Source: Escherichia coli
GTDB lineage: Bacteria > Pseudomonadota > Gammaproteobacteria > Enterobacterales > Enterobacteriaceae
NCBI RefSeq assembly: GCF_013315695.1
Contig: NZ_CP054353.1
Reading direction: 5' to 3' (one strand)
DNA: 64,000 nt
A model generated the notes under the pieces. The model was not told the DNA's origin. It was given only the letters and a program-made list of their open reading frames with translations, and ran no database searches. Below are positions 1 to 36,227 of this stretch, piece after piece; positions within the stretch are counted from its first letter, which is position 1, and each line of letters begins with the position of its first letter. Made by a program: the position numbers and the translations under genes.

Positions 1-2
1 AG

Positions 3-585
3 CGTAATCATCTGGAAAACGTAGCCAACGCGCTCGATAAGCATTTGCAGTATAACGTCGACAAACTGATCTTTTTGCGTAATGGCATGCGCGAAGCTCT
101 CGTGGCGCCACTGGATTTCACCTCTCTGCGTAATGCCGTAACCGAGTTCGAACAGCATCGCGACGAGCACACCTGGCAAATCGAACTCAACCGACGGCGC
201 ACCCTGCCAGTCAATGGCGTATCGGATGCATTAGTCAGCGAGGGGAATCTCCTGTCTCGCGAAAATGAAAGCCTCGACAATGAAATTACCGCTGCACTGG
301 AAGTTGGTTACTTGCTGCGACTGGCGCACAACTCCTCGTCGATGGTTGAACAGGCGGTGTATGTCTCGCGTGCTGGATTTTACGTTTCGACGCTGCCGAC
401 CTTGTTTACGCGCAATGTACCAACGCGTTATTACGGCTATGTCACCCAACCCTGGTTTATCGGCCATTCACAACGAGAAAATCGTCACCGCGCGGTACGC
501 TGGTTCACTTCGCAACCGGAACACGCCAGCAATACTGAACCGCAGGTTACCGTCAGTGTTCCGGTAGACAGTAATAACTACTGGT
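3..585 (+). pseudogene. dgcQ: dgcQ (yedQ) diguanylate cyclase, 5' fragment interrupted by prophage insertion; gene start lies upstream of window
   Basis: Frame from position 3 reads [28 protein letters not shown]...VDSNNYW, matching the periplasmic N-terminal region of E. coli DgcQ as I recall it; reading frame leaves host sequence after NNYW and stops 13 codons later in phage DNA (track ORF 45..626). Confidence 0.85.
580..585. repeat. Left copy of 6-bp target-site duplication ACTGGT
   Basis: ACTGGT at 580..585 is repeated at 38077..38082; joining the flanks restores an uninterrupted dgcQ frame (..[11 protein letters not shown]..). Confidence 0.7.
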
Positions 586-631
586 TGATCAGACATGAGA
601 TAAATGAAGGGGGATCCGTGAGATAAATAAC
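586..631. repeat. Left terminal inverted repeat with two GAGATAAAT motifs (candidate transposase binding sites)
   Basis: tgatcagacatGAGATAAATGaagggggatccgtGAGATAAATA; reverse complement of the right end reads tgatgcgccgcGCGATAAATGcactctatcttgtGCGATAAATG, with motifs at the same offsets (11 and 34). Confidence 0.65.
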
Positions 632-946
632 GAATTGGAGTGGGTTAACATGGGTTCTGGTGAACAGAACTGAAATTCTTTTCCGCTATACGATAGATAA
701 GTCGGGCATTGAAATCATCCTTCCTGGCAACTTAGAATCGAGTTTGCTGAAACATGACCCGTAACAAAAAGGATGATTCCAATGACTACTCAAAACAATA
801 AGCATGACAGCCTGGATTACTCAGAAAAGCCCAAAAGCAAGCACATTGTGACGTTCGAGCGCGATTCCGGTAGAAAAGGAGAATCGTCTTCCTCTGCCAA
901 TAAAACCACTATGCCGGCAGCTCCTGCTCCAGGGAAAAAATAAACA

Positions 947-1693: not shown

Positions 1694-2092
1694 TTATCTG
1701 GATTTGTTAACGTCTTTCGTCTCCTCTGGCAGATCTTCATCAAACAACCTGCCCTGCATCCGATCCAGTTCTTCTTTTCTGACCCGCTTAACCACGCTGT
1801 AGACCCACTGAAGCGAAACACCAAAATTGCGGGCCAGTTCGTGGTGGTTGCGTCCGTTAAACTCCCTGAAGATTTCCCGGTCGCGCTGACTGACCTTCCA
1901 TACCATGCCCATCGGGAAATAAACGTTTTGCCCGCCCCAGACCTGCATCATTCGGTTCGCGACGGCCTGACCAATCTGGTCGGCAATTGCGGGCTCAATA
2001 TCAATAATCTCGCGAACGGTCTCAGAGGTATGCTGTGCCAGTTCCACCAGGAGTTCCGGCCCTTTACTTCGAAACTGATTCAGGTCGCTCAT
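1694..2092 (-). CDS. mor: Mor/C-family transcriptional activator (middle operon regulator-like)
   Basis: 132 aa; resembles phage Mu Mor as recalled (..HHELARNFGVSLQWVYSVVKR.. C-terminal HTH); sits after the GemA-like gene as in Mu. Confidence 0.75.
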   Translation of the reverse strand: MSDLNQFRSKGPELLVELAQHTSETVREIIDIEPAIADQIGQAVANRMMQVWGGQNVYFPMGMVWKVSQRDREIFREFNGRNHHELARNFGVSLQWVYSVVKRVRKEELDRMQGRLFDEDLPEETKDVNKSR

Positions 2093-5544: not shown

Positions 5545-6750
5545 TTAAACCCCTTTGACAACGTCAGCGTTGACCTGTGGAACCCCGATTTCAGCGGCCA
5601 GATTCATGGCGGCTATCACCAGGTTACTGACGGCCAGCGGATACAGCAGGCTGACCATATTTTTACGATGACTTCCCGGATTGCTCAGGCGGGCACGTAT
5701 GGCATCCACTGCGCTGGCGTCCATAATGTCCGTCAGTTGTTTACCGGCCCGTTGCAGTTTGAACGTCAGAAATTCTTCAAGGTTATTGTCCAGAGGCAGA
5801 AGTTCGACCACCTCACAACGCTGAACGACTTCACGGACTTCCATATTGCGTTCAGACAGTTTTGTCGCCAGTTCCGGCTGGCCAATCAGCACGATGGACA
5901 GCAGTTTTTTGAAACCGGACTCCAGCTCAAAAAAGCGTTTGAGGTGTTTCAGTGTCGGAATGGGCAGACTGTGGGCCTCCTCAATCACCAAAACGTGGCT
6001 GAACCCCGCCTGGCTGCTGTCTTTCAGGACGCGATGCAACTGGCGAAAGCGGGCGTCCTGACTGCGTCTGATGCTTTCCAGTGGTGCGATGGTACTGATA
6101 ATGGCTTCGGCAATCGCTGCTGCCTTCAGGGTTTTCCCTTTCACATCGTTGTCTTCCATAGCGATGATGTATGGCTCGATAACAATTACCGGCGCATTCT
6201 CGCGGTTGATACGTTCAGTCAGGTCGCGGCGCAGCGTGGATTTACCCGCACCGGACTCACCGATGACGGCCATAAACCCACCATGACGGGCTGTCTGGTA
6301 CAACGCCTCACGCACGTAGCGAATGTCCGGGGTGGTGAACACATCATCAGAACCCTGCATGGCTTCATCGGCGAACGGGTCACGGAAAAGACCAAACGCT
6401 TTTTTGGTTGCTGGAAATAACACCTGTTTTTTGAGTAACATATTCTCTTCCTCACTGAGGCTCGTTTTATCTGTGGTACCCGCTGTACGGGGCGTGGCTG
6501 CGCCCTGTACAGCATCAAAACTCTTCGTTGTATCAATCCCCTGACTTTCCAGCCAGGACGCAAGACGCCGGCGCACTTCTCCGGGGCTGGTGCGGGGCCA
6601 CGCGTTATGATTCACAATCTGGGCCAGCGTGGCCTCAGAAACATCGACAGCTCTCGCCACCACCGCCTGTGGGATACGGGCCTCTTTCAGTTGCTGCTTC
6701 AGTACCAGCATGTTTTCCTCCTCAGTTGCCGTTAACAATGCTGATAACAC
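5545..6750 (-). CDS. Transposition ATPase (AAA+; functional analogue of Mu B / TniB-like)
   Basis: 401 aa; Walker A GESGAGKST and Walker B-like HVLVIEEAH; N-terminal HTH-like segment; directly downstream of the transposase. Confidence 0.85.
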   Translation of the reverse strand: MLSALLTATEEENMLVLKQQLKEARIPQAVVARAVDVSEATLAQIVNHNAWPRTSPGEVRRRLASWLESQGIDTTKSFDAVQGAATPRTAGTTDKTSLSEEENMLLKKQVLFPATKKAFGLFRDPFADEAMQGSDDVFTTPDIRYVREALYQTARHGGFMAVIGESGAGKSTLRRDLTERINRENAPVIVIEPYIIAMEDNDVKGKTLKAAAIAEAIISTIAPLESIRRSQDARFRQLHRVLKDSSQAGFSHVLVIEEAHSLPIPTLKHLKRFFELESGFKKLLSIVLIGQPELATKLSERNMEVREVVQRCEVVELLPLDNNLEEFLTFKLQRAGKQLTDIMDASAVDAIRARLSNPGSHRKNMVSLLYPLAVSNLVIAAMNLAAEIGVPQVNADVVKGV

Positions 6751-8491
6751 TGCTGCGTGCCGGCGTGGTCAGCGTGGCCATGACTTCATCCAGTGCAGCT
6801 TCCGGTACGCCGTCCGGGTACTGTGCCGTTAACTGGCGGTAATGTTCCGGCGTCCAGGTAAGGCCGTCGGCGCTGAACTTATCGCGCAGGGCTTTCGCGG
6901 CCTCCACATGAGTCATGGGACGTTGTTCAGTGCGCGGCCCGCGTACGTCAGAGGCCTGACCACGCTTCGGCATATAGGCCGGAAGTGTGGTGTCGTCGAT
7001 ATGTTTATACGGGTCAAGCCGCCCGCCGAACGGCAGCGCCTTCGCCTTGCGTGCGGCGGCTGCATCTGCGGCGTTGTCTGTACCGGTAACCAGCGCTTCA
7101 GTTTCTTTTGCCGCCATCTGTGCCGAGGTTTCCGGCAGGGCTTTGTAACTTTCGCCAAATACCGCCGCGCCTTCAGCAAAGCCAAACTCGTTCTTTCTGA
7201 CCTCTTCGACCAGGAAGAACGTCTCGTGGCCGTCCTCACCGGTCAGAACCACCTGTGCCACATCGCTGCGCCATGGGTTACGGGTAATCATCAGTTTTTC
7301 ACCAACCAGTACGCCCGGTACCGTTGATACGTCAAATTCAGTGCCCCGGAACGAGACACGAAGTTTTGGCGTGACTTTGCGGAGTTCTGGTGCCGCCACA
7401 GCCAGTTCACGACATACCTCAACGGAAGGCGCTTTTTTCAGCTGCTCAGCAGTAATCTTCAGCCAGATATCCGTGCGGGTTTTACCGTGGCGGCTGTGAA
7501 CAGCCGTGGCGTTAAAGTGGCTGCGCCATTTCGCGGCCAGCGCGTTGAGTTCTTCCAGACTGTGAACCGGCCGGAACTTCAGCCCCGGCTCCAGCTTGCG
7601 TTCGATAATGTCACGCGCCTTTTCCACCTGTCCGGTGGCGCGGGCGTTATGCGGCTTGTGCGCTATCAGGTCGATGCCCAGTGAGCGGCACATGTTTTTC
7701 GTCATACCCGCGGTGTTTGCCGAGCCGGGGTCGAGATAGAGTATTTTCGGCACGCCGTGCAGCACGTCTGCGCCGCCACGCTCCTGCATGGCGTTGATAA
7801 GCACAGAGCACAGGTTCTCACCTGATTCCGCGCCCGTCACATACTCAACGTAAATCCAGCCGCTGGCATGGTCGGTAATCTCGTAACTCCACACGCGGTC
7901 ACTGGCGATACGGGCAAGGTTAGCGGGCTTGTTCTTGTAGAACTTCGCGCTGTCCATCACCTGCAGCCCTTTATGTCCATTGCTCAGGTAGTAAAGCGTG
8001 CAGAGTGAGGCGTCAATCTGCCAGACATGATTGGGATGCAGACTGGCCACTTCGGTATGTGGTGCAGGGGCATCCAGTTGTTCCGGGTGCAGGCCATAGT
8101 TACGCAGAGCACGGCTGATGGCATCTTCAGACAACGGGAAAAACTCACTGGTGGTTTCATCTGTTCTGCCTGCGGTGATAAAGCCGTTAGCCCGCAGGGT
8201 TTCCACTGCATCTGCGATGGAATAGAGACGCTTACCGTTCTTGCGGGTGGCCTCACGCAGTGTGGCAGATATCAGCGCGGCTTCGTCGCGGGTCAGGGCG
8301 CTGCGCCCGGCATCGGCGCGTTTTTTGCGTTTATCAGTCACAGAGACCTCCTTCAGCCTGCGCAGCAGAGTGGCGCGGGACATGCCAAGTTCAGCACAGG
8401 CAGCGTCGTATATTGCACCGCGTTTACCATGCCCCGCGTCACGTGCCGCGCGGGCGACATAAACCAGTCGTTCAGTCAGGGCAGCATTCAT
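6722..8491 (-). CDS. DDE transposase (Mu A-like, integrase-core fold)
   Basis: 589 aa; N-terminal HTH, central HVWQIDASL-type DDE core; paired with an AAA+ ATPase gene as in transposable phages. Confidence 0.85.
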   Translation of the reverse strand: MNAALTERLVYVARAARDAGHGKRGAIYDAACAELGMSRATLLRRLKEVSVTDKRKKRADAGRSALTRDEAALISATLREATRKNGKRLYSIADAVETLRANGFITAGRTDETTSEFFPLSEDAISRALRNYGLHPEQLDAPAPHTEVASLHPNHVWQIDASLCTLYYLSNGHKGLQVMDSAKFYKNKPANLARIASDRVWSYEITDHASGWIYVEYVTGAESGENLCSVLINAMQERGGADVLHGVPKILYLDPGSANTAGMTKNMCRSLGIDLIAHKPHNARATGQVEKARDIIERKLEPGLKFRPVHSLEELNALAAKWRSHFNATAVHSRHGKTRTDIWLKITAEQLKKAPSVEVCRELAVAAPELRKVTPKLRVSFRGTEFDVSTVPGVLVGEKLMITRNPWRSDVAQVVLTGEDGHETFFLVEEVRKNEFGFAEGAAVFGESYKALPETSAQMAAKETEALVTGTDNAADAAAARKAKALPFGGRLDPYKHIDDTTLPAYMPKRGQASDVRGPRTEQRPMTHVEAAKALRDKFSADGLTWTPEHYRQLTAQYPDGVPEAALDEVMATLTTPARSSVISIVNGN

Positions 8492-34434: not shown

Positions 34435-36221
34435 TTATGGGAAACCTGAATGAAACAGAAAAGTGGGAAGAAAATATCTATCAACTGGAGACATCAGATC
34501 CGGTTCTGGGTGGTGCAGACGGGATATCAAATCGAGCCCCCCGGCAACTGGCAAACAGGACGAAATGGCTGAAGAAAAAAACGGAGGAAGCCGCACAGTC
34601 ACTGGCTGAACACGTACGTTCCCGTAACCACCCGGACGCGACACTGACAGCTAAGGGGTTCACCCAACTGAGCAGTGCCACCAACAGCACCTCTGAAACG
34701 CTGGCCGCCACACCAAAAGCCGTCAAGGCTGCATACGACCTTGCAGCCGGCAAGGCGCCCGTCAGCCACACTCACCCGTGGAGTCAGATAACGGGAGTGC
34801 CTGCTGCCTCGCTGACGGCAAAAGGCACCGTACAATTGAGCAGTGCCATCAACAGCACGTCTGAAATACTGGCCGCCACACCGAAGGCGGTCAAGGCTGC
34901 ATACGACCTTGCAGCCGGCAAGGCGCCCGTCAGCCACACTCACCCGTGGAGTCAGATAACGGGAGTGCCTGCTGCCTCGCTGACGGCAAAAGGCACCGTA
35001 CAACTGAGCAGCGCCATCAACAGCACGTCTGAAACGCTGGCCGCCACACCGAAAGCGGTCAAGGCTGCATACGACCTGGCAGCCGGCAAGGCGCCTGCCA
35101 GCCACACTCACCCGTGGAGTCAGATAACGGGAGTGCCTGCGGCTTCACTGACGGCAAAAGGCACCGTACAACTGAGCAGCGCCACGGACAGTCAATCAGA
35201 AACTGAGGCTGCCACGCCGAAGGCGGTCAAGGCTGCATACGACCTTGCAGCCGGCAAGGCGCCCGTCAGCCACACTCACCCGTGGAGTCAGATAACGGGA
35301 GTGCCTGCTGCCTCGCTGACGGCAAAAGGCACCGTACAACTGAGCAGTGCCATCAACAGCACGTCTGAAATACTGGCCGCCACACCGAAAGCGGTCAAGG
35401 CTGCATACGATCTGGCAGCCGGCAAGGCGCCCGTCAGCCACACTCACCCGTGGAGTCAGATAACGGGAGTGCCTGCTGCCTCGCTGACGGCAAAAGGCAC
35501 CGTACAACTGAGCAGTGCCATCAACAGCACGTCTGAAATACTGGCCGCCACACCGAAAGCGGTCAAGGCTGCATACGATCTGGCAAACGGAAAACAACCG
35601 GCAGATGCCACGCTCACTGCTCTGGCAGGACTTGCCACTGCAGCAGATCGGTTGCCTTATTTTACCGGAGCAGACCGCGCAGCGCTGGCAACCCTTACAG
35701 CTATTGGTCGCGCTATTATCGCTAAGGGCAGTATAAAAGATGTCCTCAATTACCTTGGTTTGGGGGAAGGCTCTGCATTGCCTGTTGGTGTACCGGTTCC
35801 GTGGCCCACCGCCACACCGCCAGCAGGCTGGTTACAGTGCAACGGAGCTACGTTCACCAAAGAACAATATCCTGTTCTGGCCAGAGTCTACCCGACCCTC
35901 CGTCTTCCCGATTTACGCGGTGAGTTTATCCGTGGATGGGACGGTGGTCGCAAGGTTGATACCGGGCGTGCGCTACTTTCATTTCAGGAAGGGACTATCG
36001 TATCCGGTTTTGATGATAATGATACCGGAGATATCAGTTCGCTCGGCTCTACACAATACGGATTTGGTGACGCTTTAACCTCTAATCAACTGGGGGTCAT
36101 AAATGGCAAAAAGTGGATATTTGATGCATCCTCTAAAGGTGCACAAAGATATGACTGGTGGGCTTATGTATCAGCTCGCCCCCGCAATATCGCATTTAAC
36201 TATATCGTGAGGGCGGCGTGA
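34431..36221 (+). CDS. Tail fibre protein with six tandem repeats and an invertible C-terminal domain
   Basis: 596 aa; six 56-aa repeats (..TAKGTVQLSSAINSTSE.LAATPKAVKAAYDLAAGKAPVSHTHPWSQITGVPAAS..); C-terminal ~130 aa lie within the Gin-invertible segment. Confidence 0.8.
   Translation: MIMGNLNETEKWEENIYQLETSDPVLGGADGISNRAPRQLANRTKWLKKKTEEAAQSLAEHVRSRNHPDATLTAKGFTQLSSATNSTSETLAATPKAVKAAYDLAAGKAPVSHTHPWSQITGVPAASLTAKGTVQLSSAINSTSEILAATPKAVKAAYDLAAGKAPVSHTHPWSQITGVPAASLTAKGTVQLSSAINSTSETLAATPKAVKAAYDLAAGKAPASHTHPWSQITGVPAASLTAKGTVQLSSATDSQSETEAATPKAVKAAYDLAAGKAPVSHTHPWSQITGVPAASLTAKGTVQLSSAINSTSEILAATPKAVKAAYDLAAGKAPVSHTHPWSQITGVPAASLTAKGTVQLSSAINSTSEILAATPKAVKAAYDLANGKQPADATLTALAGLATAADRLPYFTGADRAALATLTAIGRAIIAKGSIKDVLNYLGLGEGSALPVGVPVPWPTATPPAGWLQCNGATFTKEQYPVLARVYPTLRLPDLRGEFIRGWDGGRKVDTGRALLSFQEGTIVSGFDDNDTGDISSLGSTQYGFGDALTSNQLGVINGKKWIFDASSKGAQRYDWWAYVSARPRNIAFNYIVRAA
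34644..35651 (+). repeat. Six tandem copies of a 168-bp in-frame repeat within the tail fibre gene
   Basis: Unit starts at 34644, 34812, 34980, 35148, 35316, 35484; near-identical units with a few substitutions. Confidence 0.85.
35755..35834. repeat. Left inverted repeat of the invertible tail-fibre segment (contains candidate recombination site)
   Basis: 80-bp sequence ttggtttgggggaaggctctgcattgcc...cagcaggctggtta is the reverse complement of 37280..37359. Confidence 0.8.
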
Positions 36222-36227
36222 TACCGT

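Follow-up and report, generated by a model that had tools for sequence, protein, structure and literature searches.

We found that each end of a transposable prophage of Escherichia coli carries two directly repeated 23-bp units that open with a G(A/C)GATAAAT core, and we consider it probable (about 0.8) that these repeats are sequence-specific binding sites of the phage transposase, TnpA. This reading rests on the position of the repeats, on their conservation and on analogy with related elements. The prophage lies in a 64,000-nucleotide stretch of contig NZ_CP054353.1, hereafter called the window. It is a transposable myovirus of the BcepMu type and represents, in E. coli, the BcepMu/B3 lineage that has been known since 2004; its paired GATAAAT cores are the E. 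coli counterpart of the 23-bp repeats whose presence at the ends of the Burkholderia phages BcepMu and phiE255 was reported earlier.

The prophage occupies positions 586-38076 exactly, inside dgcQ, and has 5'-TG...CA-3' tips. In queries spanning the flanks, run against more than 5,300 E. coli genomes, dgcQ homology ended at position 585 and restarted at 38077. In K-12, the uninterrupted gene reads ...AATAACTACTGGTATGGCG... / ...TAACTACTGGTATGGCG..., with a single ACTGGT at the empty site. Because the empty site carries one copy, the two copies of ACTGGT that flank the prophage represent a 6-bp target duplication. The boundary features are as follows.

580-585, plus strand: left copy of the target-site duplication ACTGGT, placed by comparison with the K-12 empty site and by the end of dgcQ homology at 585
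586-596, plus strand: left terminal 11 nt, TGATCAGACAT, whose 5'-TG tip is the presumed cleavage and strand-transfer end; the same tip is found in five other E. coli insertions, and TGA in all family ends
38066-38076, minus strand: final 11 nt of the right end, which from the tip inward read TGATGCGCCGC and on the plus strand finish in CA-3', set against a right-class consensus of TGAaGCGCcgC and the R1 site of phage Mu
38077-38082, plus strand: right copy of ACTGGT, placed by comparison with the K-12 empty site and by the resumption of dgcQ homology

The interrupted gene, dgcQ (yedQ), encodes a diguanylate cyclase regulating cellulose synthesis; since the prophage splits it into two parts (window 1-585 and 38077-39026), it is inactivated in this strain.

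A preliminary description of the sequence had proposed a search for the same termini in other genomes, and had held that related copies bounded elsewhere would speak against these ends. The opposite was found. Together with the dgcQ flanks and the K-12 site, five further E. coli copies place the ends at 586 and 38076: their tips, TGATCAG...GCATCA, are identical, and they lie in diverse sites, namely in gudD, a DUF4153 gene, a fimbrial gene, an ABC permease gene and zraS, flanked by the 6-bp duplications ACATGG, GCTTGC, GGGATG, GCAGGG and TCTTCG, respectively. A 6-bp duplication was thus observed in six of six chromosomal copies, each at a different locus, and also in four IMG/VR end pairs located on the same contig. 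Apparent 5-bp duplications in IMG/VR ends that could not be assigned to one contig were near chance expectation and were left out.

The left end was present in 253 of 5,426 complete E. coli genomes (approximately 5%), at many loci, and the identical dgcQ insertion in only four genomes of the collection. Alignment of 134 distinct flanks from the window, the E. coli copies and the IMG/VR loci showed a target preference of approximately 5'-NCHDGN-3', with a palindromic skew within the duplication: C was found at position 2 in 36-51% of flanks and G at position 5 in 34-49%, G at position 3 in only 3-6% and C at position 4 in 6-16%. Short, orphan remnants of prophage ends were also observed on E. 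coli plasmids. Plasmid pCS18F-NDM-Fos (NZ_CP074577.1) carries a 140-bp fragment of the left end whose first 9 nt are missing, beside IS3 and IS1 fragments, and pCUVET16-559.2 carries a 111-bp right-end piece with the tip included, on a plasmid that has tail-fibre, holin and other phage-like genes; left-end matches occur at about 105 plasmid places.

The left end, 586-628 on the plus strand, reads TGATCAGACAT-GAGATAAAT-G-N13-GAGATAAAT, where N13 is AAGGGGGATCCGT. The right end, 38076-38034 on the minus strand, reads TGATGCGCCGC-GCGATAAAT-G-N13-GCGATAAAT, where N13 is CACTCTATCTTGT. Each end has two G(A/C)GATAAAT cores, 23 bp apart, which start 11 and 34 nt from the tip, exactly as the preliminary description had reported for both termini. 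The corresponding repeats are listed below.

597-619, plus strand: left repeat 1, 23 bp, core GAGATAAAT at 597-605, presumed TnpA site L1; BcepMu has GAGATATTT at the same offset
620-642, plus strand: left repeat 2, 23 bp, core GAGATAAAT at 620-628, presumed TnpA site L2; BcepMu has GCGATATTT at the same offset
38043-38065, minus strand: right repeat 1, 23 bp, core GCGATAAAT at 38057-38065, presumed TnpA site R1; BcepMu has GCGATATTT at the same offset
38020-38042, minus strand: right repeat 2, 23 bp, core GCGATAAAT at 38034-38042, presumed TnpA site R2, identified by the composite pattern and the repeat search

Against an expectation of 6.9, the heptamer GATAAAT was counted 11 times in the 64-kb window, the two terminal 45-nt stretches accounting for four of these occurrences. 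The composite pattern TGA-N8-GMGATAWWT-N14-GMGATAWWT matched the two prophage ends only in the window, and gave no match in 100 shuffles. The repeat search returned TGAGATAAAT twice at the left end and GCGATAAATG twice on the minus strand at the right end, both as 10-nt direct repeats with 23-nt spacing. No third copy of the core was detected in the family consensus to 110 nt, each end having two cores only.

Comparison with BcepMu provided further support for the repeats. From the tip, the BcepMu left end reads TGAAGAGAGGT GAGATATTT-N14-GCGATATTT and its right end TGAAGCGCGGC GCGATATTT-N14-GCGATAAAT. At both ends BcepMu therefore has, like the prophage, a TGA tip and G(A/C)GATA(T/A)(T/A)T cores at offsets 11 and 34, in the same 23-nt register. 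The two phages differ in host, the prophage residing in E. coli, in the core sequence (GATAAAT compared with mostly GATATTT) and in the tip (TGAT compared with TGAA), and megablast found no match between them, their DNA similarity being too low. The ends of phiE255 and BcepMu have been described as bearing imperfect direct repeats of 23 bp, possible recognition sites of gp40, the rve transposase (Ronning et al., PMC2920897), and BcepMu-type prophages as having TG...CA termini and Tn552-like transposases (KS10 paper, PMC2628397). The ends of B3, a siphovirus of the Beetrevirus group, also show a TGA or TGT tip and related cores at the same offsets, the cores being degenerate (GAGAAATAC, GCGATAAAG, GCGAAATTT and GCAATAAAT) and the right-end spacing being 22 nt.

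To follow the ends across the family, 80 IMG/VR loci were collected through tnpA homology. The motif was present in every one of these loci that extends to the tip; the remaining loci stop at or before mor or part-way into the end. Approximately ten distinct left-end variants were obtained in this manner, in which TGA, TGAGATAAAT and GAGATAWWT are kept and the spacers differ. A motif scan of IMG/VR yielded at least 120 stretches, which were reduced to 85 non-redundant ends (38 left-class and 47 right-class). Cores are conserved by construction in this second set, so that independent evidence for them comes only from the tnpA-derived ends and from BcepMu, B3 and Mu; outside the imposed columns, the 85 ends showed a conserved TGA tip and near-zero information in the spacers. 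Klebsiella phage KP12 was left out of the end comparison, its record lacking tips and its invertase-side end starting about 55 nt inside the right tip. Fixed cores separated by variable spacers are the pattern expected of short protein-binding sites held in a fixed register. The conserved part, both between left and right ends and across the family, covers only about 10 nt per 23-bp unit, a small length for a site of bipartite type.

We considered the possibility that the motifs are merely part of a generic terminal inverted repeat, with TnpA reading the tip or some other part and the inner copy having no function. The left and right ends are indeed identical at 26 of 45 positions, tip included. 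However, this similarity is modular, consisting of a tip, a core, a 14-nt variable spacer and a second core; the inner core is as conserved across the family as the outer one, the 23-nt register is kept in BcepMu, and transposases of related structure rely on several repeated sites at each end. We therefore regard a generic inverted repeat as unlikely. The preliminary description had named the motifs as the best candidates for transposase end-binding sites, and this proposal is supported by homology with the BcepMu repeats, by the published suggestion for phiE255 and BcepMu and by conservation in the family.

The gene content of the prophage points to the same lineage. It has an rve transposase, an inverted early operon, TG...CA termini, 23-bp end repeats, insertion at many sites with a short duplication, and Mu-like head together with P2-like tail genes, all of which are BcepMu-like characters. 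B3-like organisation has been described as that of Mu with the early operon inverted, the transposition proteins of Mu and B3-like phages being different (PMC5977238). In the window, open reading frames, PHROG matches and RefSeq annotation locate mor beside the left tip and tnpA several kilobases further in, an order that is inverted relative to Mu. The leftward early arm comprises mor, a gemA-like gene, gam, the ExeA-like ATPase, TnpA, DUF3102 and HTH proteins. It is followed by a divergent repressor region at about 10 kb, with lysis, Mu-like head and P2-like tail genes running rightward beyond it. In identical copies, RefSeq annotates the head, packaging and tail genes as DUF3486, DUF935 portal, Mu F-like, G-like, sheath, tube and gpD/V/W/J/I, in BcepMu order. 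The early genes relevant here are the following.

1694-2092, minus strand: Mor-type late activator (phrog_532, 1.3e-44; position of BcepMu gp01), near the end of the leftward early operon and reading toward the left tip
5545-6750, minus strand: ExeA-like AAA+ "DNA transposition protein", an analogue of MuB, TnsC and IstB (phrog_296, 6.6e-94; RefSeq "ExeA family"; position of BcepMu gp08)
6722-8491, minus strand: TnpA, a 589-aa DDE (rve) transposase with N-terminal helical DNA-binding domains, assigned by Pfam rve, BcepMu/B3 homology and predicted fold

BcepMu and phiE255 (genus Bcepmuvirus) have the same gene order as the prophage. The B3-like phages likewise have an inverted early operon with mor beside the left tip. 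PhiKM (PQ738613.1), Phi06_2974 B and the prophages of about 250 complete E. coli genomes are essentially the same phage as that of the window. The DNA of PhiKM is 98% identical over 1.7-4.4 kb of the window, its matches starting only at about window position 1734 and leaving the tip-proximal 1.1 kb or so unmatched. A literature search found no publication on the ends of the E. coli members.

This gene arrangement bears on a further reading, in which the motifs would be -10-like promoter elements driving inward transcription from both ends. ATAAAT agrees with the -10 consensus (TATAAT) at five of six positions. Even so, a promoter scan of both ends found none of these hexamers used in a sigma-70-like site, the -35 element of the outer copy would fall in the variable host flank, and the end-adjacent genes, mor and gin, read toward the tips. 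We consider this reading highly improbable.

We then turned to the protein that would bind the repeats. TnpA is 99% identical to its PhiKM counterpart, 68% identical over 577 aa to BcepMu TnpA (gp09), 69% identical to phiE255 gp40 and 56% identical to the transposases of Pseudomonas phage B3 and B3-like phages. Its family contains at least 389 clusters at E <= 1e-30 in a library of 50%-identity representatives. The rve domain is its only Pfam content, and D160, D254 and E290, which form a D,D(35)E triad, are invariant in an alignment of 111 diverse homologues. A sequence search against the PDB gave only weak matches to retroviral integrase cores, so a comparison at the level of fold was needed. 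The AlphaFold2 model built from the 111-homologue alignment (pLDDT 91.7) comprises N-terminal helical domains (approximately residues 1-50 and 68-140), an RNase H-like core, a beta-barrel and a C-terminal helical tail. Its best structural matches were TnsB and IstA, across the DNA-binding, catalytic and beta-barrel domains, with 12-17% identity. TnpA therefore combines N-terminal DNA-binding domains, a DDE core, a beta-barrel and an adjacent AAA+ ATPase gene, in the manner of TnsB and IstA. No relation to MuA was detected by profile comparison (hhalign probability 0.2%). The linker between the two N-terminal helical domains contains a near-invariant basic stretch at residues 55-62 (RKKRADAGR, with R55, R58, D60 and G62). 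On sequence and model grounds, one may speculate that R55 and R58 are candidate minor-groove readers of the A/T-rich ATAAAT core.

TnsB, IstA and MuA bind arrays of end repeats of about 20 bp and work with an AAA+ partner, TnsC and IstB being examples. The prophage differs from Tn7 and CAST elements, which use TnsB, in having no TnsA and no CRISPR or attTn7 targeting, and its insertion sites are diverse. The annotation of BcepMu TnpA as a "Tn552/IS1604 rve transposase" points to another comparison. Tn552 of Staphylococcus aureus encodes p480, a D,D(35)E transposase with an ATP-binding partner; its CA-3' ends are essential and it generates 6-7-bp duplications. In each of its terminal repeats, the transposase reportedly protects two 23-bp motifs that stand side by side as direct repeats. 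The repeat layout of the prophage fits this arrangement, Tn552 being a small transposon and not a phage. In a tblastn search of plasmids with TnpA, the matches listed comprised IS481-like proteins of about 26% identity and a few true relatives, and did not reach Tn552.

These comparisons suggest how the repeats could be used. Each repeat would be bound by one TnpA protomer through the N-terminal helical domains, giving two protomers per end and presumably four per synaptic complex. Such a complex would bring the terminal CA-3' ends, located 11 nt outward from the first repeat, into the active sites formed by D160, D254 and E290. The CA-3' ends would then be cleaved, and the resulting 3'-OH ends would attack target DNA with a 6-bp stagger, probably with the assistance of the adjacent ExeA-like AAA+ protein during strand transfer.

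Phage Mu, which moves by replicative transposition, has MuA sites L1-L3 and R1-R3 with a 22-bp consensus. It resembles the prophage in its TG...CA tips, in having several transposase sites per end and in its Mu-like head and packaging genes. It differs in its 5-bp duplication (6 bp in the prophage) and in its transposase, the prophage having none of the MuA type. Mu has three MuA sites per end; in the prophage two cores per end were seen, and its right end resembles Mu R1 and R2. At the sequence level, the Mu right end reads TGAAGCGGCGC-ACGAAAAAC-N13-ACGATAAAT, where N13 is GCGAAAGCGTTTC, and Mu R2 contains CGATAAAT as well as ACGATAAAT. The right tip of the prophage (38055-38076, minus strand) agrees with Mu R1 in 17 of its 22 nucleotides and with the BcepMu right end in 16 of 22. 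Among the 128,000 strand positions in the window, a score of 17/22 to the Mu right tip is attained by only one further 22-mer, and the right-class family consensus, TGAaGCGCcgC, is nearly the same as the Mu tip TGAAGCGGCGC. The Mu left end (TGTATTGATTCACTTGAAGTACGAAAAAAA...) agrees with that of the prophage at only 7 of 22 positions.

The statement in the preliminary description that the ends differ from those of Mu thus holds for the left ends and fails for the right. The distinct lineage that it deduced from this difference is non-Mu, as indicated by the comparison with MuA, the 6-bp duplication and the inverted early operon. It is not new, belonging to the BcepMu/B3 lineage and having PhiKM in GenBank. 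The deduction itself was weak, the right tip of Mu being as close as that of BcepMu.

The resemblance to Mu raised the possibility that the GATAAAT cores are sites for an accessory protein, either of the IHF, HU or Fis type or one of the phage HTH or DUF3102 products encoded next to tnpA, and not for the transposase. The cores are A/T-rich, and the Mu right end has CGA(A/T)AAA at nearly the same offsets despite the unrelated N-terminus of its transposase. However, the Mu cores fall inside the established MuA sites R1 and R2, and the motif recurs in hosts ranging from Burkholderia to E. coli, always with identical offsets relative to the cleavage site, a constancy which the phage's own recombinase fits better than host factors do. 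An accessory protein as the main reader of the cores therefore appears improbable. Since the Mu right end has similar cores though the MuA DNA-binding domains are not detectably related to those of TnpA, the core sequence could partly reflect a constraint other than TnpA binding.

The right end of the prophage also contains an invertible tail-fibre segment (35752-37425), flanked by 229-nt inverted repeats at 35752-35980 and 37134-37362 that are 90% complementary. The segment was found in both orientations among copies in other genomes. A Gin-like recombinase adjoins it, encoded by the open reading frame 37297-37998, or by approximately 37426-37998 if it corresponds to the 573-nt recombinase gene of identical copies; BcepMu has an acyltransferase in this place instead. 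At the outer edge of the segment, a gix-like TTCCCCCAAACCAACGTTTATCTC gives rise to a near-match, GAGATAAAC, to the transposase core. This near-match and GAGATAATG, 23 nt apart at 37361-37392 on the minus strand, were evaluated as a further transposase site. The pair was rejected because it lies at the outer edge of the 229-nt inverted repeats and looks like an invertase crossover site.

Other blocks of conserved sequence were found near the tips, as follows.

629-680, plus strand: 10-bp-phased array AACGAATTGGAG TGGGTTAACA TGGGTTCTGG TGAACAGAAC TGAAAT, at the left end only, recognised from left-class ends and the Mu left end
670-695, plus strand: conserved left block AA-N5-TTnC-N7-GAA (AATT-N3-TTnC-N7-GAA), here CTGAAATTCTTTTCCGCTATACGATA, at about 88-110 of the left-class consensus
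37995-38019, minus strand: conserved right block TTTCA-N7-GAAAAAGAATT, read from the tip, at about 58-80 of the right-class consensus

In the 38 left-class ends, three or four (C/T)GGGA(T/A) units in 10-nt phase lie just inside the second repeat. Their autocorrelation was 42, 30 and 19 at 10, 20 and 30 nt, respectively, and at most 9 at other lags outside the peaks (4-39 nt). The phased array was absent from the 47 right-class ends. It was also observed at the left ends of BcepMu (44-90) and B3 (44-100), and nt 31-80 of the Mu left end carry the same phased array, CCGGGAGGAC ATTGGATTAT TCGGGATCTG ATGGGATTAG, followed by CTTGCAAGCCTGTAGTGCAAATTTT. The pac site of Mu has been mapped to roughly nt 32-58 of its left end. 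As the array is shared with this part of Mu, we propose, by analogy, the left-end GGGA array at 629-680 as a candidate Mu-type pac signal.

The array also bears on the idea that the GATAAAT motifs themselves are pac signals for the Mu-like terminase. A pac site is expected at one end only, whereas the cores are present at both ends in inverted orientation, and the phased GGGA array, confined to the left end and common to the left end of Mu, is a better candidate. We thus judge it very unlikely that the cores serve in packaging, and retain binding by TnpA as the preferred reading.

On the genome the left and right blocks point the same way and are not inverted with respect to each other; they lie about 90 nt from the tip in left ends and about 60 nt from it in right ends. 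The right-class consensus is TTTCA/TTGCA-N7-GCAAAAGAATT. In relatives the block is partly palindromic (TTGCA...TGCAA), and Mu has CTTGCAAGCCTGTAGTGCAAATTTT at the corresponding left position. The features shared with Mu are, at the right end, the tip TGAAGCGGCGC followed by CGA(A/T)AAA cores 22-23 nt apart and, at left ends only, the 10-bp-phased (C/T)GGGA(T/A) array followed by the TTGCA...TGCAA block. Tentatively, BcepMu-like and Mu ends may share cis elements despite having transposases with unrelated DNA-binding regions, a possibility that we rate as rather doubtful at present.

These findings leave the known mechanism unchanged, the same repeats having been described earlier for BcepMu and phiE255. 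They provide base-exact ends, a duplication length and an end-site layout for a prophage that approximately 5% of complete E. coli genomes carry. Because the element interrupts genes such as dgcQ, gudD and zraS, this should aid prophage annotation, and it should also help in the design of mini-elements. What might be new is modest and comparative, namely the resemblances to the ends of Mu, the array proposed as a pac signal and the palindromic target preference. If the phased array is the pac site read by the shared Mu-type terminase, it would represent a packaging signal conserved across transposable phages, and the asymmetry between left and right ends would be set by packaging and not by transposition.
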